Shown: in pieces, positions 4,936 to 28,298 of the stretch
How positions within the stretch are numbered: the stretch's first letter is position 1
How the letters are laid out: the number at the start of each line of letters is the position of its first letter
NCBI GenBank assembly: GCA_964432455.1
Contig: CAYSNO010000003.1
Coordinates: forward strand, 1-37,197
Source of the DNA: an uncultured Candidatus Saccharibacteria bacterium
GTDB taxonomy: Bacteria; Patescibacteriota; Minisyncoccia; Phycocordibacterales; UBA918
Length of the DNA stretch: 37,197 bases
Direction of reading: 5' to 3'
Translations under genes and position numbers: made by a program
The notes under the pieces: generated by a model
Databases searched by the model: none
Seen by the model: the letters and a program-made list of their open reading frames with translations, nothing else
What the model was told of the DNA's origin: nothing

Positions 4936-5262
4936 ATGGAGATGAGTGACAAAGTCAAAGTGTGGCTCACCTGCCCCGAATCACATGCGGAGACAGTTCG
5001 CCTGGCGATTGGGGATGCGGGACTCGGACAGATTGGCAACTACACGCACTGCAGCTTTGTCTCAAAGGGCACCGGGTACTTTAAGCCTACAGGGGAAGCC
5101 AGCCCCCACATCGGTCAAATCGGTCAACTCGAGGCAGTGCCAGAGGTGGTGATTGAATTTGTGTGTACTCAAGAGCAGCTCCCGCTCCTTGGGGCAATCT
5201 TGAAGGAACATCATCCGTACGAAGAAGTGGCGGTGGACGTCTTCCCTCTCCTCACATTCTAA
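4936..5262 (+). CDS. COG3323-type PII-like protein (stand-alone homolog of the NIF3/YqfO insert domain)
   Basis: CPESHAETVR..GLGQIGNYTHCSF.S.GTGYF.P...A.P.IG......V.E..IEF.....L......L...HPYEEVA.DV.PL matches this family as I recall it. Confidence 0.75.
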   Translation: MEMSDKVKVWLTCPESHAETVRLAIGDAGLGQIGNYTHCSFVSKGTGYFKPTGEASPHIGQIGQLEAVPEVVIEFVCTQEQLPLLGAILKEHHPYEEVAVDVFPLLTF

Positions 5263-5333
5263 GGCTATTTACAGAACTGACTTTCTGCAGTACATTTCAC
5301 CACCAGTGTAACGCCTGCATCAAGGAGGATGAC

Positions 5334-5660
5334 ATGGGGCACATAGAAAGGACGGGGCCGAAGCCGATATCAAAGTACCAGCGTAAGCTCGAGGCCCGCA
5401 ATGCCGAAATCACCGATACGAGCGAACAAGATGAATCACCTGAAACTACCACCTGGGAGGTGACAGGGAGGATTTCGAAGATACCAACGAAGGGTTACTT
5501 CTTCGTGCAGTCGGAGGAGGCTGAACGGGTCTTCGTCGCCACCGAACTCCTTGGAGGCCACCTGACACCGCACGAACAAGACTGGCTGCGGTGCCGCGTG
5601 TTCCGCAACGAGCACGGACTTCGCGCTGAAGCAATCCTCGAGTACCGGACCGGTGCTTGA
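5334..5660 (+). CDS. hypothetical protein (108 aa), higher G+C with strong SD
   Basis: AAGGAGGA at 5322-5329 lies 4 nt before the ATG. A terminator follows. No family recognised. Confidence 0.6.
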   Translation: MGHIERTGPKPISKYQRKLEARNAEITDTSEQDESPETTTWEVTGRISKIPTKGYFFVQSEEAERVFVATELLGGHLTPHEQDWLRCRVFRNEHGLRAEAILEYRTGA

Positions 5661-16686: not shown

Positions 16687-17352
16687 TTGCAAAACCAATC
16701 AAAGGACGCGTACACCCCAAAAGTAAAGACTCGTATTAATCAGGCTATCAAAGCCAAAGAGTTACGCGTGGTTGGTCCAGAAGGTGAAAACTTTGGTATT
16801 CTTTCGCTCGCCGATGCGCTCGCGAAAGCGGATGAGCTCAACCTCGACCTCATCGAGATCAGTCCAAATGCGAAGCCTCCAGTGGCCAAAATCATCGATT
16901 ACGGTAAGTATCGCTACGACACCGGTCAAAAAGAAAGTGAGATGCGTGCCAAGTCACATGTCACCGAGACAAAAAGTGTCCAGGTGAAAATCGGCACCGG
17001 AGAAAACGACCAGCTCCTTAAGGCGAGTCGGGTCGCGGAGTGGCTTGAAGAAGGCCACCGCGTGAAGGTCGACCTCTTCCTCTGGGGCCGCTACAAGTTC
17101 ATGGAACCAGCTTTCCTCAAGGAGCGTCTTGATCGCTTCCTCAAAATCATCCCGACCGAATACAAAATTGCGGACGAGATGAAAAAGAGTCCGAAGGGCT
17201 ATACCACCACCCTCGAGCGCATGCCGGGTACCAAGGTCCAAAAGCTCAAGGATGCAGCAAAGCCAGTCATCGAAGAGAAAAAAGCCCCTGCCGCCCCCCA
17301 AAAGAATAAGAAAAAGGATCTCGATTCACTCCTCGAAAGTGGCCTTATCTAG
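16687..17352 (+). CDS. infC: translation initiation factor IF-3 with a Lys-rich C-terminal extension
   Basis: RINQAIKAKELRVVGPEGENFGILSLADALAKADELNLDLIEISPNAKPPVAKIIDYGKYRY. The start is non-ATG (TTG 16687) and its exact position is uncertain. Confidence 0.92.
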   Translation: MQNQSKDAYTPKVKTRINQAIKAKELRVVGPEGENFGILSLADALAKADELNLDLIEISPNAKPPVAKIIDYGKYRYDTGQKESEMRAKSHVTETKSVQVKIGTGENDQLLKASRVAEWLEEGHRVKVDLFLWGRYKFMEPAFLKERLDRFLKIIPTEYKIADEMKKSPKGYTTTLERMPGTKVQKLKDAAKPVIEEKKAPAAPQKNKKKDLDSLLESGLI

Positions 17353-17359
17353 CCTTTCT

Positions 17360-17590
17360 ATGACCGAAAGTACCAAGAACTTCGGCGCTATAGCAATTTC
17401 AACCCTGATATTTATATTGGGTATTGCTTCAATATACAGCTTTATTATGGTGGTTGATTCCTTTTTTGCATTGGATTGGCTGGTTCTTTCCCTCGTTTTG
17501 ACCGGTATTTTTGCTATTTCGCTCCATTTTGGACAGAAATCAGAACGCATCAAAGCCGCCCTTGAATATCCCTTTACGTTTTTTGGGTAG
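17360..17590 (+). CDS. small two-TM membrane protein (76 aa) between infC and rpmI
   Basis: ATG lies 7 nt after the infC stop. Two hydrophobic helices (AIAISTLIFILGIASIYSFIMVV, LVLSLVLTGIFAISL). No family recognised. Confidence 0.5.
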   Translation: MTESTKNFGAIAISTLIFILGIASIYSFIMVVDSFFALDWLVLSLVLTGIFAISLHFGQKSERIKAALEYPFTFFG

Positions 17591-20900: not shown

Positions 20901-21503
20901 CTATTCGTTCTTACCATCCATATCGATGTCGTACATGATGCGTTCCTGTGCAGTGATGTACTTCATGATATCACTTTCAGTAAACCAAAGTGCGATTTCA
21001 CGTTCAGCTTCTTCAGGTGATTCTGAACAGTGAATGAGGTTGCGAACGGCACGATTTTCGTATGATGAGTGACTATATGAGTCCACAGTGAAGTCACCAC
21101 GAATTGTTCCTACGTCTGATGTCTTTGGTTCAGTGGTGCCCACGAGCTTTGTCACCACAGCAACAGCTTCATTACCTTCCCACACCATCGCAACGACTGG
21201 AGCAGCTTCCATGTAGTGCACAATGGTACGAATGATATCCTTACCATATTCAAGTGCCTCCTTTTCCACTGGGCGACCCTGACTTTGCAAGTCTTCAATA
21301 ATACGTGTCCCTTTCTTGAGGAACCAGGCATCATCTTTGTTGTAGTGTGCGAGCAAACGAGCTTCGTCAGCCATAAACATCTTCATGGCGGTGCACTTGA
21401 GGCCTGTGCGTTCAAAGCGCTTGATAACCTCGCCAATGAGTGAGCGCTGGACAGTGTCGGGCTTTAAAATAACAAAGGTGCGTTCTTGGTGTGGGTGCTT
21501 CAT
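20901..21503 (-). CDS. ndk: nucleoside diphosphate kinase, long form (200 aa)
   Basis: ERTFVILKPD.VQR.LIGEVI.RFE..GL ... NLIHCSES. Carries an internal insertion and a C-terminal extension relative to Ndk proteins of about 140 aa. Confidence 0.9.
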   Translation of the reverse strand: MKHPHQERTFVILKPDTVQRSLIGEVIKRFERTGLKCTAMKMFMADEARLLAHYNKDDAWFLKKGTRIIEDLQSQGRPVEKEALEYGKDIIRTIVHYMEAAPVVAMVWEGNEAVAVVTKLVGTTEPKTSDVGTIRGDFTVDSYSHSSYENRAVRNLIHCSESPEEAEREIALWFTESDIMKYITAQERIMYDIDMDGKNE

Positions 21504-21533
21504 GGTAAAAATAAGTTACAAAATAACGCCAGA

Positions 21534-21542
21534 ACTATACCA
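21534..21542 (-). promoter_or_regulatory. extended -10 promoter TGGTATAGT upstream of ndk (leader of about 31 nt, no SD)
   Basis: The minus strand reads acaaTGGTATAGTtctggcg. Confidence 0.5.
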
Positions 21543-21553
21543 TTGTACGGCAT

Positions 21554-21679
21554 AAAAGAAAAGACCTCCGAGGCGCGAGCAGACGCGCCTCGGAGGCAAG
21601 CAGCAGCCCTTGCGGGCTGGCGTGTGCGATCGCAGGGCAGCGACCGCGGGCAGTGTCTATCACCGAAGTGACGGACGCT
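21554..21679 (-). ncRNA. candidate GC-rich structured sRNA (about 125 nt)
   Basis: Has its own TGGTATACT promoter. Hairpins: GUCAC-UUCG-GUGAU, GCGGUCGC-UGCCCU-GCGAUCGC, CAGCCC-GCAA-GGGCUG. Ends in a 13-bp terminator (21565-21596) plus a T-run. Confidence 0.5.
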
Positions 21680-21685
21680 ACCACT

Positions 21686-21694
21686 AGTATACCA
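21686..21694 (-). promoter_or_regulatory. extended -10 promoter TGGTATACT
   Basis: The minus strand reads aaattgTGGTATACTagtgg. The 14-mer TGGTATACTAGTGG is identical to 36921-36934. Confidence 0.55.
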
Positions 21695-21702
21695 CAATTT
21701 AT

Positions 21703-21798
21703 AAAAGAAAAAAGGCCGAGCTCCAGGGGGATGAAGCTCGGCCAGGTCCAACAGGGAGGATGCCGCGCCATAACCCCGACACGACGAGGGGAATCACT
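21703..21798 (-). ncRNA. candidate sRNA (about 95 nt)
   Basis: Lies between the TTGACA-17-TACACT promoter and a 9-bp hairpin (21714-21743) plus T-run. Contains a CCCC-UCGUCGUGUC-GGGG hairpin. No stop codon occurs before the terminator. Confidence 0.45.
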
Positions 21799-21804
21799 AC
21801 ATTC

Positions 21805-21833
21805 AGTGTATGCCTCACCACACAAGCTGTCAA
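21805..21833 (-). promoter_or_regulatory. sigma70-type promoter TTGACA-17-TACACT
   Basis: The minus strand reads ttTTGACAgcttgtgtggtgaggcaTACACTgaatg. Confidence 0.6.
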
Positions 21834-21907
21834 AATAAATCTGGGATAAGCGTACATCCCCCAATCGATTAGGGTATTGTCAACGGACAGCTCCTAAAAT
21901 GAGACAC

Positions 21908-21954
21908 AAGAAAAGGCCGCCGAAAGTAAGGTGGTGACCTTTCCCTCGGCGGCC
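21908..21954 (-). terminator. long imperfect hairpin plus T-run downstream of the 205-aa gene
   Basis: The minus strand reads ggccgccga..(aaggt-cacc-acctt)..tcggcggcc followed by ttttcttgtg. Confidence 0.55.
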
Positions 21955-22073
21955 CGGTTTGGTGCCGCCAGCGCTTACGCGCGACGTCGAGCGGATGCAT
22001 CTGCATAGCTCGTCCTCCTTCTTTGTTCAAGTTGCCTTCCCCGCGCCGGTTCATTCCGCCGCGGGGTCTCTCA

Positions 22074-22691
22074 TCAGTAGTCGTAGTCGCCGTAGTCCGG
22101 CAGCTCGCTGTTAGCGCGAATCTCGTCCTCAAGCGCCTGTTGGGAACCTTCGTAGTCGTCCCAGTAGTCAGCTTCGGACGATTCATCGTCAGTGACAGCC
22201 TGGTTCAGAGACGATTCAGAACCAAAGTCCCTACGATGATCGACCTCACGGATCAGCTCCGCGAAGACGAGCCTCGTCTTCGGAGCCATGGTAGTGGGAC
22301 GAACCCAATACCACCCACCCTCCACCAGCCATTCAAACCGACGCGGGATATTCACCACAATCTTGATGTGATCGAGGTGATCGCCCTTGTGGTAGAGACG
22401 ATACTGCCCATGCCACTGCAGTCGACCTTTCCACTGATCGCAGAAGAGACGGAGCGGCAACTGCGAGACTCGCATCTGCGCCGGCAGCTCGGTATAGAGG
22501 ACCGGCTGACGCGGCGATTCAACCGGACGAATCGTCTCGGGGTGAACCAACTTCGTCCAGCGGTCACTGTCGACAATCTTCTTCTGCCGCGGACCCTTCG
22601 GGCGACGCGGCGATTCGGCCTCCTTTGACGCCTTATTCAGGTGTGCGACGAGGTCGGTGAAAGATTTCAGTCCATTGTTGTCCGTTCCCAT
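22074..22691 (-). CDS. hypothetical protein (205 aa) with a strongly acidic, Tyr/Trp-studded C-terminal tail
   Basis: SD GAAGGAG lies 8 nt before ATG 22691. Higher G+C. The tail is DDESSEADYWDDYEGSQQALEDEIRANSELPDYGDYDY*. No family recognised. Confidence 0.7.
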   Translation of the reverse strand: MGTDNNGLKSFTDLVAHLNKASKEAESPRRPKGPRQKKIVDSDRWTKLVHPETIRPVESPRQPVLYTELPAQMRVSQLPLRLFCDQWKGRLQWHGQYRLYHKGDHLDHIKIVVNIPRRFEWLVEGGWYWVRPTTMAPKTRLVFAELIREVDHRRDFGSESSLNQAVTDDESSEADYWDDYEGSQQALEDEIRANSELPDYGDYDY

Positions 22692-22905
22692 GATGGGATC
22701 TCCTTCTGCGTTGCGCTCCTTGGCGCCAGGTTGATGCAGAGCCAGTGCGCGGGATTGCGCGATGGCGATGAATAGATGAGCTGCGAGCTCATCATCCACC
22801 AGAGATCTTGGTTTCAAAAAAAAATGAGCTTCAGCTTGTCAGGACATCAGCCCTAACGTATTCGACCGCTTGAGTCCATGTGACTCACTCCTTTCATGTT
22901 AAGGA

Positions 22906-22928
22906 ACGAAAAAACGCCATCGTGGCGT
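22906..22928 (-). terminator. map terminator
   Basis: The minus strand reads acgcca-cga-tggcgt followed by tttttcg. Confidence 0.65.
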
Positions 22929-22964
22929 CCTTTGTTTCCTGCAAAAAATAGTAGCACGAATATT

Positions 22965-23741
22965 CTACTTGGTCAATATCTCCGCACCGTGCTCAGTAAT
23001 GGCAACCGTGTGTTCGAAGTGGGCGCTCCAGGTACCATCGGTGGTATAGACACTGTAGCCGTCGCCTTCATCGTCAAAATAGACATCAGCTTTTCCTAAG
23101 TTCACAATCGGTTCAATCGCGTAGACATGGCCAACTTCAATGAGCGGTCCTTGACCGGCTTTGCCAACGTTTGGAATGAGTGGCTCCTCGTGGACAGCAT
23201 ACCCTACCCCGTGGCCACAGAGGACCTCCACTGGACTCATACCACGACTGCGGACGAACTCCTCAATGGCGTGGCTAATGTCGCCGATATGATTGCCGGG
23301 CTTCGCTTCCTTAATCGCATGTGCGAGCGCCTCACGGGTGCAGGCAATGAGCGACGAGGCTTCTTTACTGATTTCACCCACACCGACAGTAATGCCGGAG
23401 TCAACAATCATTCCTTCGAGTCCAATCGACATATCAAGATTCACCACATCACCTTCTTTGAGAACGATGTCCGCTGACGGAATGCCGTGCTGGACACAGT
23501 CGTTGACCGAAATACAAACGGCGGCTGGGTACGGTGTCGGGGCAAACGATGGGTGGTAGCCAAGAAGGACAGGCTCGACCCCATATTCTTCGACCATTTC
23601 CATGGCGAGATCATCGAGATCAAGCGTTGAGACACCGGGCTTGGACGCCTCACCGAGGCGCTTGAGGATAGTCGCCAAAATCCGCCCCGCTTCGCGCAGC
23701 ACGTCGATTTCTTCTCTAGACTTCTTCTTAATACCCGACAT
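22965..23741 (-). CDS. map: type I methionine aminopeptidase
   Basis: VCISVNDCVQHGIP, GDVVNLD, GHGVG..VHE.P, EPIV... metal-ligand motifs. Confidence 0.95.
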   Translation of the reverse strand: MSGIKKKSREEIDVLREAGRILATILKRLGEASKPGVSTLDLDDLAMEMVEEYGVEPVLLGYHPSFAPTPYPAAVCISVNDCVQHGIPSADIVLKEGDVVNLDMSIGLEGMIVDSGITVGVGEISKEASSLIACTREALAHAIKEAKPGNHIGDISHAIEEFVRSRGMSPVEVLCGHGVGYAVHEEPLIPNVGKAGQGPLIEVGHVYAIEPIVNLGKADVYFDDEGDGYSVYTTDGTWSAHFEHTVAITEHGAEILTK

Positions 23742-23780
23742 AATATGGCTACTATAGAGGAAAAGGTAGCCAATAGCAAC

Positions 23781-24374
23781 TTAGTCTAATTGGAGTCCGG
23801 TGAGGATAGCGGCGTGCACTTCATCAATTGAGAGGGTGCCGTCGACGTCGTGAACCTGGGTATTTGGTCGAGTGCGGTAGTACTCGATAACCGGCAAGGT
23901 CTCTTCACGGTACCAACGGAGGCGCTCTTCGATCGAGTCACTCGTATCATCCAATCTAGCACGGCTTTCCATACGGGCACGCACCACTGCCTCAGGTGTG
24001 GCGAGATTTACCACATCAATACTTGTACGATCAAAGAATTTAAAGGCGTCATCGAGGTCCGGAATCTGGCCAACAGTTCGCGGGAAGCCGTCAATCAGGA
24101 GATGGCTCTTGTCATCAAGTTGGTCAAGCATAGCGCGGCCCCAGAGCACGGTTGTAATGAAGTCTGGCTGCAAAATACCGCTATTGAGGGTGGCAGCAAT
24201 CTTATCTTCGGCAAAGGTTTCTTGGGTGGCAGCGAGTGCACGGAAACGACGACCGGTCTGAATGTCTACCACGCGACGGCGGTCACGGGCTTCAAGCACC
24301 CCCTTTAACTTCTCAATCTGCGTCCCCTTACCACTACCCTGCGGCCCAATAAAAATGACTGTTTTGATATCCAT
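23781..24374 (-). CDS. adk: adenylate kinase (short, Cys-less lid)
   Basis: IFIGPQGSGKGTQ P-loop, LIDGFPRT, RLDD. Confidence 0.92.
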   Translation of the reverse strand: MDIKTVIFIGPQGSGKGTQIEKLKGVLEARDRRRVVDIQTGRRFRALAATQETFAEDKIAATLNSGILQPDFITTVLWGRAMLDQLDDKSHLLIDGFPRTVGQIPDLDDAFKFFDRTSIDVVNLATPEAVVRARMESRARLDDTSDSIEERLRWYREETLPVIEYYRTRPNTQVHDVDGTLSIDEVHAAILTGLQLD

Positions 24375-24414
24375 ACTGGTACAGTGTAGCGACTAATTAG
24401 ATATTGGCAAGAAA

Positions 24415-24987
24415 TTACCCCTTGAGCACATTAAAAATGTGCTCCCGGACTACCTCTGGTGATTGTGTACCGTCTATATCAATCAGCGTACCTTGTGAGC
24501 GAAAAAACTCAATCGATTTGGCGGTGTAGGTACGATACTCTTCGAGTCGCTTATCAACCGACTTTGGTGAGTCGACGATATCGCGAGCACGCTTTTCACT
24601 CCGTTCATGTACTTGTTCATCACTAATATCGAGGTTGAAGACTATGTAGGGACGATTTACCCATTCGTGAATCTCATGAAATAACTCTGCTTCGTCTGGC
24701 TTTTTAGCGACAGCTTCAAATATCACTCGGTCTTTTTCATATTGTGAGACCAAAGCATGGGTCATCCAGTATGAAGCAATCCATTCTGGGATAAGGCGAC
24801 CACTCTCGTACATCTCTTTCATTTTTTGACCAAACACGGTTGGTTGTGCAGCGGTCTCACGCACTTTATTACCGTTTGAGTATAGCGTGCCACCAAAGTT
24901 TTCTAAAATGTAGTGGGCCTGCGTACCCTTGCCTGAACAGATTTTACCCATTAAGACGATGCTCTGATATTTGGTCTCGTATTGCAT
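24415..24987 (-). CDS. second adenylate-kinase-family NMP kinase paralog
   Basis: LMGKICSGKGTQA P-loop and overall AK-like layout (190 aa), in tandem with adk. Confidence 0.8.
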   Translation of the reverse strand: MQYETKYQSIVLMGKICSGKGTQAHYILENFGGTLYSNGNKVRETAAQPTVFGQKMKEMYESGRLIPEWIASYWMTHALVSQYEKDRVIFEAVAKKPDEAELFHEIHEWVNRPYIVFNLDISDEQVHERSEKRARDIVDSPKSVDKRLEEYRTYTAKSIEFFRSQGTLIDIDGTQSPEVVREHIFNVLKG

Positions 24988-25025
24988 GACAGTACGGTAC
25001 CAATTTTATCCCATTTGCGCAATTG

Positions 25026-25034
25026 TGGTAAAAT
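25026..25034 (+). promoter_or_regulatory. extended -10 promoter TGGTAAAAT, 6 nt upstream of ATG 25041
   Basis: aattgTGGTAAAATtgaacaATG. Confidence 0.55.
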
Positions 25035-25040
25035 TGAACA

Positions 25041-26045
25041 ATGAGTGAAAAATTCCGACCGCACGACTACTCAGGAGAAACTCCCTCCCAACATCAACCT
25101 ACAGCAGCAATGGAGGGTCGACCGCGTCAAGAAACCACACCAGCACAACTCATGGTGCGAAGGTATCTTGAATCAATTAATGAAGAAACTCTCCAATCAA
25201 TCATCACTGAATACATTGGTGTAACCGGTAGAAATACTAATCACCTGAGCGGTTTTGTGCCTTTTAATGATATTCGTTTGCTGGACGACAAAAACAACCC
25301 AGGGTATGGGCGATACATGAACGGTGAGAGTTATATCGAATTGAACAGTTTTTGGCTGGCAGACAATCCTGTACAAACTCTGTACACACTTATCCATGAA
25401 GAACTTCATGCCTGTAGTAATACTATACTAGCTACTGTACATCCAGAAAGAACAAATTACACTCTGCACTCTGGTGTAGTCACTAGCTATATGAGTGTAG
25501 ACCACTCCAATAACAGAACTATAGACAGTAAAATGGAGGAGGGCACTGAAGCAAACGAAGGTATAACTGAATTATTGACTCGAGAATGCCTGCGTGAATA
25601 TTTAAAAAGAACTGGTGATTCAGCCATGTATGGGACAGTTGAAATAGAGAAGGCTTTGTATGAGAGTCGTCACGAAGATAGTTATGGAGCATACCAAAAA
25701 TCTATTGATTTTTTTGCTATGCTCATTTCAGCAGTTACAGATGTAAGTATCGATACTGTTCGAAAAGGGATTTATCGCTCATATTTTAGAAATTCTGACA
25801 TATTCTCACCAGAAATTTCAGCCTTTATTGATGATATTATCCCTGGTTCAATTCAAAAAGTACAACGATTATTACGTAATGAATTTGTGCCTCAAGATTT
25901 TGTCGAATTACAGACAGCAATTGAGAACTCTATAAAATTAAACGAGACGGAAAAAGACACATTAATCACGAACCTCAAAGGTCTGTTCGCAGAAAAATCT
26001 ATCCAAAAAGCTGACATGATTGAGCGTGGTATACTGCCCCAATGA
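25041..26045 (+). CDS. hypothetical protein with an HExxH (zincin-like) motif
   Basis: 334 aa, AT-rich. TLIHEELHAC contains HEELH, and an acidic EGTEANEGITE segment lies about 50 aa downstream. No signal peptide seen. Confidence 0.65.
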   Translation: MSEKFRPHDYSGETPSQHQPTAAMEGRPRQETTPAQLMVRRYLESINEETLQSIITEYIGVTGRNTNHLSGFVPFNDIRLLDDKNNPGYGRYMNGESYIELNSFWLADNPVQTLYTLIHEELHACSNTILATVHPERTNYTLHSGVVTSYMSVDHSNNRTIDSKMEEGTEANEGITELLTRECLREYLKRTGDSAMYGTVEIEKALYESRHEDSYGAYQKSIDFFAMLISAVTDVSIDTVRKGIYRSYFRNSDIFSPEISAFIDDIIPGSIQKVQRLLRNEFVPQDFVELQTAIENSIKLNETEKDTLITNLKGLFAEKSIQKADMIERGILPQ

Positions 26046-26674
26046 AACGGCAACACATCATCACAATTTCGGGCAAACCAGGCAGCGGGAAGTCTTCAAC
26101 GGCTGATATAGTAGCTGAACTCCTTGGGTATACTCGGCACTCGTCTGGTGATATGGTACGCCAAATTCTCGCCGATAAGGGGATGTCGCTCGCTGAATAC
26201 AACGAACGAGCCAAGAGCGACCACGCCCTAGATGACGCGGTCGACGATCGCCTCCGCGCACTGCGGACCAAAAAGGATATTGTGGTTGACTCACGCCTCG
26301 GCTTCTATTGGATACCCGAATCATTTAAAGTCTACCTCGATCTCGATATTGAAGTGGCGACCGTCCGTATCTACAAAGATGCGGTCAATAACGCGAACCG
26401 CAGTCAGACTGGTGAAGGTATTAGTTCGTTGTCTGAGGTGACAAAACAAGTGCGTTTCCGGATGGAAGAAGAACGGAGTCGCTTCCGTGAACTCTACCAC
26501 GTCGATCCGTACGACCTCGCCCACTTTGACCTCATCATCGACACCTCCCGCCACTCACCACAAACGGTAGCGCTCGTGGTCTTTGACACCTACCGCCGAT
26601 GGCTCGATGCCCAGGTTTGGAAACAGGAACGAAGTGCGATTCCAGCCGGTTACTCCTTCAAAAACCAGTATTAA
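26042..26674 (+). CDS. cmk: archaeal-type cytidylate (CMP) kinase-like protein
   Basis: IITISGKPGSGKSSTADIVAELLGY ... DIVVDSRLG ... KVYLDLDIEVATVRI resembles archaeal-type Cmk. Overlaps the previous ORF by ATGA. Confidence 0.75.
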   Translation: MKRQHIITISGKPGSGKSSTADIVAELLGYTRHSSGDMVRQILADKGMSLAEYNERAKSDHALDDAVDDRLRALRTKKDIVVDSRLGFYWIPESFKVYLDLDIEVATVRIYKDAVNNANRSQTGEGISSLSEVTKQVRFRMEEERSRFRELYHVDPYDLAHFDLIIDTSRHSPQTVALVVFDTYRRWLDAQVWKQERSAIPAGYSFKNQY

Positions 26675-27020: not shown

Positions 27021-28298
27021 TTAGTATTCGCGGAGGGATACCTGAGCGTCAAGACGACGGATAAGATCAAGCACTACATTCACCACAATCAGAATCGCGG
27101 TTCCACCAATGGCGAGCGCTGCGATACCGGTTGCTACCTGCAGGGCAATCGGCAGTACGGCTACAACCGCAAGGAAGAGCGCACCAACGAGAGTAAGTCG
27201 GGTAATCAAGTTACCAAGGTACTCGGCAGTGTGATCTCCTGGGCGGATACCCGGGATAAATGAACCATTGCGCTGCAAGTTCTTTGCAATCGCTTCAGGG
27301 TCAAAGGTCACCGCGGTGTAGAAGAAGGTAAAGAGGAATACGAACACGAAGTAGACCGCTCCATAGAGGATATAATCGTTCATGAAGCTCGCAATCGCTG
27401 CGTTTGCAGTCGCTACCCATGGTAAGTTAAACGCACCGAGGATATTCAAGACCATCTGTGGGAAGAGGAGGATTGAGAGCGCGAAGATGATTGGAATCAC
27501 ACCAGCCTGGTTAAGGCGCAGTGGCAAGTATGAGTTGTTACCACGAGTGGTCAACATCATGTTGCCGCGGCTCTGCTTGGCATTGGTGATTGGCACCACC
27601 CGCTCGGCTTCAGTCATCACAACTACAGCGTAGATAATACCGATAGCGAGGAAAACAAACCCAATATAGAGCGGTAGCTGGGCAGCGTTGTAGTTGTAGA
27701 TTAACTGACTGATAGTGGTTGGAAGTCCAGCCATAATACCAGCAAAGATAATCATCGACACACCGTTACCAATACCATACTCAGTCACCAGTTCACCAAG
27801 CCACATGAGCAAGGTAGCACCAGCTACTACGAGGATGACGTTTAATGCGAAGTCAAAGAAGGTCAAGTGACTAATTACTCCCTGACTTTCAAGCAAGGTG
27901 AGGAAACCAAAAGCCTGAAGAATCGCCAGGGGAAGAGACAGCATACGCGTATACTGCGTAAACTTGGCCCGACCGGCTTCGCCTTCTTCGGTGTAGAGAC
28001 TCTTCATCTTTGGTGACATCACCGTCATGAGCTGCAAGATGATAGAAGCCGTAATAAACGGACCAACACCAAGCATCACAATCGAAAGATTTGAAAGTCC
28101 ACCACCTGAGAAGATGTTGAGGAGACCAAGGAACTGGTTGTTCGCAAAGAATTGCTGCAACACTGCCTGATCAACTCCTGGAATTGGGACTGCCGCCAAA
28201 AGACGGAAGATAGCGAGTGCCCCAAGGACAAAGAGCACACGGTTACGAATGGTCTTGTCGGTAAAGACTACTTTTAATTTGTGTAGAAATGTTTGCAT
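27021..28298 (-). CDS. secY: preprotein translocase subunit SecY
   Basis: 425 aa, 10-TM layout. LFVLGALAIFRLLAAVPIPG and GGLSNLSIVMLGVGPFITASII motifs. Confidence 0.97.
   Translation of the reverse strand: MQTFLHKLKVVFTDKTIRNRVLFVLGALAIFRLLAAVPIPGVDQAVLQQFFANNQFLGLLNIFSGGGLSNLSIVMLGVGPFITASIILQLMTVMSPKMKSLYTEEGEAGRAKFTQYTRMLSLPLAILQAFGFLTLLESQGVISHLTFFDFALNVILVVAGATLLMWLGELVTEYGIGNGVSMIIFAGIMAGLPTTISQLIYNYNAAQLPLYIGFVFLAIGIIYAVVVMTEAERVVPITNAKQSRGNMMLTTRGNNSYLPLRLNQAGVIPIIFALSILLFPQMVLNILGAFNLPWVATANAAIASFMNDYILYGAVYFVFVFLFTFFYTAVTFDPEAIAKNLQRNGSFIPGIRPGDHTAEYLGNLITRLTLVGALFLAVVAVLPIALQVATGIAALAIGGTAILIVVNVVLDLIRRLDAQVSLREY

Follow-up and report, generated by a model that had tools for sequence, protein, structure and literature searches.

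The variable map-ndk segment of a Patescibacterium: a SorX-like small RNA, an accessory gene for a predicted OB-fold protein and a second candidate small RNA

Organization of the map-ndk segment

The 37,197-nt stretch of uncultured Patescibacteriota DNA analysed here (contig CAYSNO010000003.1; the window) carries on its minus strand the end of a ribosomal-protein cluster, in the order secY, two adk paralogues, map, the segment under study, ndk, a gene for a small membrane protein and one for a beta-CASP RNase (Table 1). The segment holds a 205-residue open reading frame (ORF205) with a structured leader and 3' untranslated region (3'UTR), and two short non-coding units, small RNAs B and C. A first-pass annotation had described 21545-22905 as a single foreign-looking island of raised G+C content with Shine-Dalgarno (SD)-led genes. 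Comparison with related loci (given L-numbers below) favors a different reading, and one held with some confidence, namely that the map-ndk space of freshwater Paceibacteria is a variable hot spot occupied by three independent units rather than by one island. The first unit would be an accessory cassette (~21880-22964) that comprises a separate terminator downstream of map, a structured leader, SD-led ORF205 and a long 3'UTR ending in T_A, the probable original terminator of map. The second would be a ~95-nt small RNA, a xenologue of SorX acquired once by the clade from a Rhodobacterales donor, and the third a further structured small RNA. The SorX xenologue is the most surprising element of the segment.

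Many individual elements of the first-pass annotation stand. The SD of ORF205 (GAAGGAG) is real and lies 7 nt upstream of ATG 22691; the map terminator is found by terminator scan; the three further minus-strand terminators (hairpin and U-run) have their stems at 21915-21954 (T_A), 21714-21743 and 21565-21596 (T_C); the extended -10 box of ndk, TGGTATAGT, is in place; and the two short non-coding units delimited by the terminators are small RNAs B and C. Two signals are read differently here: the SD-like AAGGAGG is present before ATG 22006, but this ATG is probably not a gene start, and the TTGACA -35 box (21833-21828) belongs to a predicted small-RNA promoter and not to a protein gene.

Table 1. 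Features of the map-ndk segment and its surroundings (window coordinates)
Feature	Position	Strand	Remarks
ndk	20901-21503	minus	Pfam
ndk extended -10 promoter	21534-21542	minus	TGGTATAGT; invariant in window, L001, L005, L006, L007; resident flank
Small RNA C (predicted)	21555-21696 (transcript ~21555-21680)	minus	extended -10 box TGTGGTATACT at 21686-21696
Small RNA B (SorX homologue)	21703-21799	minus	Rfam RF02784, 61.3 bits; gathering score 46.6; E=1e-12
Small RNA B promoter (predicted)	21805-21833	minus	sigma-70-type, TTGACA-17-TACACT; promoter scan, 10/12 matches
Unit A, structured 3'UTR of ORF205	21905-22073	minus	alignments, RNAalifold, inverted repeat I1
ORF205	22074-22691	minus	205 aa; dN/dS 0.20-0.30
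ORF205 leader and upstream region	22692-22905	minus	hairpins 22775-22793 and 22741-22766; SD GAAGGAG
map terminator	22906-22928	minus	stem ACGCCA/TGGCGT and U-run; part of variable cassette
map	22965-23741	minus	Pfam
adk paralogues	23781-24374 and 24415-24987	minus	
Cytidylate/dNMP-kinase-like gene	26042-26674		L004 carries two such genes
secY	27021-28298	minus	

In a tblastn survey of 84 related loci, adk-map-ndk-tm133-bCASP is the standing order at ~50, down to ~46% map identity, and the map-ndk gap normally measures 80-400 nt. Loci retrieved with the map protein all belong to metagenome-assembled genomes (MAGs) of Patescibacteria (Paceibacteria, Parcubacteria, 'Kaiserbacteria'), and rivers and surface waters are the source of the closest ones. 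E. coli queries for IF1, L36 and S13 have no match anywhere in the window, nor less than 6 kb from map at any of the related loci. Because of this absence and of the standing order, map followed by infA-rpmJ-rpsM, which had been taken as the arrangement from which the segment departs, is not the local ancestral state; ndk follows map throughout this family, and the map-ndk order is ancestral in the Paceibacteria relatives. The gap itself is a hot spot, with unrelated ORFs in L011, L018, L024, L025, L028, L031, L032, L041, L042 and L048. (The gap of a sister clade is filled by a different ORF of 106-109 aa: L011 6841-7171, L018 4073-4394, L024 6818-7139. As read from the sequence it is SD-led in L011 and L018, with a C-rich terminator-ended sequence next, before ndk.)

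Occupancy of the gap separates the units. At the map locus ORF205 is confined to the window, L001-L003 (85% identical), L004 (53%) and L023 (distant, and cut by the contig end). The nearest relatives, L005, L006 and L007, whose map proteins are 96-98% identical to that of the window, do not have the ~1.1-kb cassette, and neither does L097 (~88% nucleotide identity across map-adk); all four have clean gaps in which small RNAs B and C are retained, and L009 likewise has B and C without ORF205. The non-coding units (21545 to ~21880) that had been counted into the island are in fact resident small-RNA genes. On the other hand, L004 and L023, with map 89% and 75% identical, carry the ORF205 arrangement including the leader; common to L023 and the window are the terminator next to map, the hairpins of the leader, the SD and an MGxxNxGLK N-terminus. 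This recurrence at deeper loci implies that the arrangement is old or repeatedly exchanged within the lineage, and not a recent one-off import. Conservation across the lineage, which the first-pass annotation had set against acquisition, thus holds for L004 and L023 but not for the closest relatives. The empty sites show at least three distinct junctions: T_A is retained in L010, the shared sequence picks up again at TTGACAATAC in L006, and in L005, L007 and L097 it does so further on. In L010, T_A stands immediately after map, with compensatory changes in its upper stem, and for this reason T_A is probably the original map terminator. The map-proximal terminator of the window is kept in L001, L004 and L023 and missing in L005, L006 and L007.

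The composition of the segment is atypical, as had been claimed, but only modestly so. At 0.564, the G+C content of 21545-22905 exceeds the window mean of 0.503 (z=2.0; standard deviation of same-size windows 0.030), and no other 1361-nt stretch of the 37 kb is as rich; the departure is genuine but of modest size, since 500-nt bins elsewhere reach 0.578. In k-mer deviation 21881-22960 stands 22nd among 362 windows by dinucleotides (z=1.7) and 19th by tetranucleotides (z=2.1), about the top 6%, and 24.7-25.3 kb and 16.8-17.3 kb deviate more. The raised G+C stems from an ORF205 that is rich in G+C at third codon positions (GC3), from G+C-rich stems and from the foreign small RNA.

A single recent import, in which one ~1.35-kb block from a G+C-richer donor brought ORF205 and both non-coding units together, would account for this composition, for an ORF205 SD in an SD-poor genome, for the patchiness of ORF205 and for the foreign small RNA. 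It is largely refuted by the partial-occupancy states, that is, by B and C without ORF205 in five relatives, T_A without ORF205 in L010, and, in L004 and L023, an ORF205 that has this leader and occupies this site. Moreover, the match to Rhodobacterales DNA is confined to 21727-21801, and the ORF205 relatives on placeable contigs are all from Parcubacteria. Presence/absence polymorphism coincides with atypical composition for ~21880-22964 only (G+C z=2.0, GC3 0.69). As first noted, no tRNA, no flanking direct repeats and no recombinase signature in the only ORF are found (Pfam, PHROGs and NCBIfam scans), nor is an integrase or an att site. Import as one block is therefore very improbable, although the unusual composition and signals, the accessory nature of the ORF205 part and the foreignness of small RNA B all survive from the island claim; what fails is its unity, in favor of three units of different histories.

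Small RNAs B and C

Small RNA B covers the whole Rfam model of SorX (all 73 positions), and scores above the gathering score. The copies of L001 and L002 score 68.6 bits and that of L006 61.7, against 70-74 bits for Rhodobacterales copies. Minimum-free-energy folds of four copies from the candidate phyla radiation (CPR) consist of a 5' hairpin, a single-stranded CCUCCCUGUUGG seed and a terminator with U-tail, and the terminator stem co-varies through compensatory changes. SorX is a singlet-oxygen-resistance small RNA that represses potA translation in an Hfq-dependent manner and is induced by singlet oxygen and by peroxide.

A metagenome scan with the 21-nt core of small RNA B matched at least 120 stretches; most of the 80 loci listed have a G+C content of 58-74%. 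In the eight high-G+C loci examined, the copy lies ~170 nt 3' of a gene for a 228-aa regulator of the OmpR type. This is the published context of SorX, which a nuclease (RNase E) cuts out of the 3'UTR of RSP_0847, an OmpR-type regulator gene (PMC9438474). The regulator is 89-93% identical to named homologues, nearly all of them from Rhodobacterales (Cereibacter, Gemmobacter, Falsirhodobacter, Rhodobacteraceae/Paracoccaceae); two MAG-derived names fall outside that order.

The window copy is identical to L171 and L127 at 54 of 55 positions (TTCCCC to GGCCG), and blastn against Rhodobacterales SorX loci aligns 60-67 nt at 94-97% identity. The Rhodobacterales copies are less alike (mean 68%, ungapped over 63 nt) than are the window copy and L171; they vary by compensatory changes in their stems, and the CPR copies fall inside one of their variants. 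Within 21400-23000, blastn finds nothing beyond 21727-21801 that matches these loci. The 54/55 identity points to cross-phylum transfer: small RNA B is, by sequence comparison, almost certainly foreign and from another phylum, and we infer that SorX passed from Rhodobacterales into an ancestor of this CPR clade. At least eight independent CPR assemblies, from different projects, carry it at this map-ndk site; the window, L001 and L006 have it in nearly unaltered form, and its 5' part is decayed or remodelled in L004, L005, L007, L097, L009 and L010. No copy was found in viral contigs or plasmids, and a literature search of titles and abstracts returned no report of SorX in CPR bacteria.

Could the likeness be convergent, a C-rich, anti-SD-like small RNA matching Rfam by chance, or else an artefact of chimeric assembly? 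C-rich seed small RNAs are generally known to arise repeatedly in bacteria, other C-rich terminator-ended sequences are seen by eye before ndk in the distant loci L036, L011 and L018, and Rfam also returns a weak match to SorY. However, the identity extends through the variable 5' hairpin as well as the seed (E=1e-12 to 6e-15), to a copy closer than Rhodobacterales copies are to one another, and the locus recurs in assemblies of different projects, flanked left and right by promoters of CPR type. Convergence and chimerism are both highly improbable against this.

The -10 box of the putative small RNA B promoter is conserved in the window, L001, L004, L005, L006 and L007, and the -35 box is intact or almost so except in L004. 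Small RNA B would be expressed straight in its 'mature' form from its own promoter, rather than cut from a 3'UTR. By analogy it most likely acts as SorX does, the exposed CCUCCCUGUUGG seed pairing with G-rich, SD-like sites and blocking translation. The best non-self duplex of the seed in the window is with an 11-nt perfect complement, ACAGGGAGGAU, at 5463-5475 on the plus strand, inside ORF 5163-5660, in coding sequence and not at a start site.

Several further variants of the small RNA were seen. The allele of L010 (6860-6990) has three CCCUGU(U/A)(G/U)G repeats, multiplying the C-rich motif, and 5' hairpin loops expose extra CCUCC motifs in L005 (6841-6932) and L007 (6862-6953). Among Rhodobacterales, a tandem pair of SorX-like copies lies 3' of the regulator in L113 (1524-1796), L096 (2014-2288) and L129 (111-406). 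L131 (1094 nt, G+C 0.47) has a SorY-type hairpin (GAAGG...CCTTCA) before the same seed, and may be a carrier outside Rhodobacterales.

Small RNA C is predicted as a ~125-nt transcript of four hairpins (UUCG and GCAA loops) that ends at T_C. Its promoter and terminator are conserved in the window, L001, L004, L005, L006, L007, L009 and L097; the predicted transcript varies between lineages (75-135 nt). RNAalifold on the type shared by the window, L001 and L097 gives 44 pairs, 10 with compensatory changes. No Rfam match is found even at E<=5 and no similarity to the Rhodobacterales loci; small RNA C, like the predicted OB-fold family considered below, is new.

ORF205 and its cassette

ORF205 is a real gene, as its ratio of non-synonymous to synonymous substitution rates (dN/dS, 0.20-0.30) implies, and its product, first described as uncharacterized, belongs to no named family in the libraries. 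A 247-aa version starting at TTG was rejected, its frame being broken by indels in L001; so was a 42-aa upstream ORF in the leader, which by the authors' reading of the alignment contains a stop codon in L001. The leader (aligned for the window, L001, L004 and L023) is 83-89% identical to that of L023 over blocks of 57-115 nt, although map is only 75% identical, and its stems show compensatory changes; conservation of the leader hairpins suggests that ORF205 may regulate its own mRNA. No promoter was found in 22692-22905.

Unit A consists of a hairpin without U-run after the stop codon, the SD-like AAGGAGG with ATG 22006, more hairpins, and T_A. ATG 22006 is not counted as a gene start because its frame reads through T_A and because changes in it (window, L001, L004) are mostly non-synonymous (~8 non-synonymous against 2 synonymous between the window and L004, hand count); a 6-nt indel in this frame falls in a hairpin loop. 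No Rfam match at E<=5 and no similarity to the Rhodobacterales loci is found for unit A.

GC3 is 0.69 in ORF205 against 0.44-0.59 in core genes. High-expression codon bias fails as the cause, because GC3 of the ribosomal-protein genes is just 0.44-0.53. The SD likewise sets ORF205 apart: flanking core genes lack one, as had been observed, and so do nearly all called core genes of L001 and L004, as well as the ndk leader. (A TATAGT/TATACT box stands just 5-15 nt upstream of ATG in several core genes of L001 and L004 and at the map, secY and cmk-like starts of the window. Together with the lack of SDs, such closely placed -10 boxes suggest leaderless or very-short-leader translation in this lineage.)

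The family is rare: a word-indexed search yielded 6 homologues of ORF205 and an exhaustive profile search of 1.84 billion representatives 15 clusters. Members on placeable contigs all come from Parcubacteria, as judged from the name of the source, the title of the MAG or a ribosomal-protein context. There is no match in Pfam, PHROGs, NCBIfam or PADLOC, no profile match among PDB sequences at E<=10, no match to peptide patterns in GTDB representative genomes, and no viral or plasmid homologue, IMG/VR viral contigs included.

Family genes exceed their surroundings by 7-12 points of G+C at all ten loci compared, with GC3 of 0.69-0.79, and 9 of 11 family loci have a GGAGA-type SD ahead of the start (none at the called starts of L004 and L089). 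Because it is G+C-richer than its hosts in ten contexts and mostly SD-led, the family looks mobile between genomes, or un-ameliorated. Three of its contexts are ribosomal-protein operons; members occupy the rplB-rpsS gap (L087, L091), a site with a hibernation-factor gene and def-fmt (L089), and unrelated places (L085, L092-L094). (Ribosomal-protein operons of relatives are broken up by accessory genes at L087 6001-8249, L091 536-2555 and L004 993-1603: ORF205 homologues and a DUF2103 gene between rplB and rpsS, a PIN-MazE pair in L091 and a PemK toxin gene in L004.)

The protein has a basic N-terminal extension, a core resembling the S1-like oligonucleotide/oligosaccharide-binding (OB) fold (~residues 66-155) and an acidic tail. 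An alignment of 19 sequences resolves a conserved core of ~85 residues, a variable middle, in which forms of 310-350 aa carry ~170 extra residues, and a conserved C-terminal tip, E.RaNSE.PDYD. AlphaFold2, supplied with the family alignment, predicts a five-stranded barrel for residues 70-155 at a predicted local distance difference test (pLDDT) score of 90-95. Foldseek against PDB and BFVD returns almost exclusively S1-like OB folds (eIF1A, aIF1A, IF1, uS17, the S1 domain of RNase R, Rpb7, eIF2-alpha) with probability 0.95-1.0, E of 8e-3 to 6e-2, root-mean-square deviations of 4-6 A over ~80 residues and template-modelling (TM) scores of at most 0.6 (IF1). Pfam and NCBIfam searches at E<=0.1, made with at least five family members, give no match to the IF1/eIF1A (PF01176) or S1 (PF00575) profiles, and the predicted S1-like OB assignment is one of fold level only. 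On this model ORF205 would most likely be an accessory protein that binds single-stranded nucleic acid, RNA being favored, with an acidic tail that probably serves to engage a partner or to hold binding by ORF205 itself in check. A displaced infA was considered and rejected, ORF205 being accessory and IF1, L36 and S13 being absent from the surroundings of map in related loci.

An alternative in which nothing was acquired also has to be weighed. The segment would then be ancestral and vertically inherited, its G+C content due to structured RNA and unusual amino-acid and codon use, and relatives would have deleted ORF205. The same arrangement in the deep relatives L004 and L023 is consistent with this, as are the different junctions at ORF205-less loci (fitting independent deletions), the window-L004 identity of ORF205 (53%, similar to the 48% of its fast-evolving neighbor tm133) and compositional z values of only ~2. 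Small RNA B cannot be vertical, however, because of its 54/55 identity to Rhodobacterales SorX and its nesting within their diversity. Against vertical descent of ORF205 stand the G+C excess of its relatives over their hosts and their SDs, unlike host genes; moreover L005, which in a neighbor-joining (NJ) tree of map and adk2 (drawn without support values) lies between the window and L001, with L004 and L023 deeper, lacks the gene and has a different small-RNA allele. A wholly vertical history does not seem likely, though it retains some plausibility. Three units of separate history remain the preferred account.

Assessment and relation to known systems

Several points weigh against that account or its parts. 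The NJ tree requires either ~5 losses or 3-4 transfers of the ORF205 cassette. Promoters, transcript ends and processing in the segment are predicted, and expression, small-RNA targets, ORF205 function and the direction of the ORF205 indel are inferred. SorX needs Hfq in Rhodobacter, and neither potA nor hfq lies in the 37-kb window. A seed-duplex scan of the 37 kb and of 11 translation-initiation regions gave no convincing target: duplexes with the ORF205 start (-13.9 kcal/mol) and the SD-like site of unit A (-14.2) are within background (mean -11.1, standard deviation 3.6). As to ORF205, the contexts of its family are heterogeneous, the Foldseek E-values are weak (none <=1e-3), and no sequence profile from Pfam or PDB sequences links it to any OB family.

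Elsewhere in the window, nucleotide-kinase genes cluster within 6 kb (20901-26674): ndk, the two adk paralogues and the cytidylate/dNMP-kinase-like gene. At 25041-26045 on the plus strand lies an orphan ORF of 334 aa (G+C 0.39, GC3 0.31), the strongest tetranucleotide outlier of the window and without match in Pfam, PHROGs, NCBIfam or PADLOC; since it has no counterpart in L001 and L097 it marks a second indel, inside the adk/cmk kinase cluster. The strongest dinucleotide-signature deviation is at 16800-17400.

Regulatory small RNAs are usually restricted to narrow lineages, and to our knowledge documented transfers of small-RNA genes between phyla are very rare. Here a characterized Rhodobacter small RNA is nearly unchanged in a CPR bacterium and apparently re-wired to its own promoter, which offers a first handle on small-RNA regulation in Patescibacteria, in a genome with SD-less core genes. 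ORF205 in turn adds a new, unannotated, Parcubacteria-restricted family with a predicted OB fold, whose genes lie repeatedly in or beside ribosomal-protein operons and have a foreign-looking composition and SD signals. For island calling the segment is a caution, in that a compositional island can mix units of different history.

We know of no identified hosts for most Parcubacteria, and small RNA B is a testable lead to a Rhodobacterales host or DNA donor of this clade. A bolder proposal, and a distinctly doubtful one, is that Rhodobacterales (Gemmobacter or Cereibacter, for example) are the hosts, the SorX copy a mimic and ORF205 an eIF1A-like factor for a few SD-led mRNAs. The SorX copy could then tune host-derived or host-interacting transcripts and, should RNA pass between cells, act on potA-type targets of the host, and ORF205 would be an accessory factor for translation or RNA in a genome that otherwise lacks SDs.

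Among known systems, the ORF205 cassette resembles genomic islands in its patchiness, its atypical G+C and GC3 and its expression signals unlike those of the host; it differs from islands and integrative elements in being a ~1.1-kb single-gene unit without integrase, tRNA or direct repeats, whose occupancy differs between relatives. The predicted ~85-residue five-stranded barrel of ORF205 matches IF1, aIF1A/eIF1A, uS17 and the S1 domain of RNase R best and, as in eIF1A, lies between a basic N-terminal segment and an acidic C-terminal tail. Unlike those proteins it lacks profile similarity, is patchy in occurrence and has the extra region of ~170 aa in its long forms; its patchy, accessory presence implies that it is not a core factor.

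The combination of a predicted OB fold with a disordered acidic tail and a short conserved, aromatic-containing tip (PDYD/Y) also recalls bacterial single-stranded-DNA-binding protein (SSB) and phage proteins of the T7 gp2.5 type; in SSB the C-terminal tip is the partner-docking peptide. On the other hand, ORF205 has no match to the SSB family in Pfam (PF00436) and no replication, phage or plasmid genes nearby, and the SSB Rim1 stands low in its Foldseek list, with S1-like barrels ranking higher.

Small RNA B departs from SorX in residing in a Patescibacterium, between map and ndk, where the gene upstream is ORF205 or map instead of an OmpR-type regulator, and in having a predicted promoter of its own ~7 nt upstream of the homologous sequence in place of release from a 3'UTR. 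In architecture it can nevertheless be thought of as SorX of Rhodobacter (Cereibacter) sphaeroides in a new setting, with the same 5' hairpin, single-stranded CCUCCCUGUUGG and terminator with U-tail.

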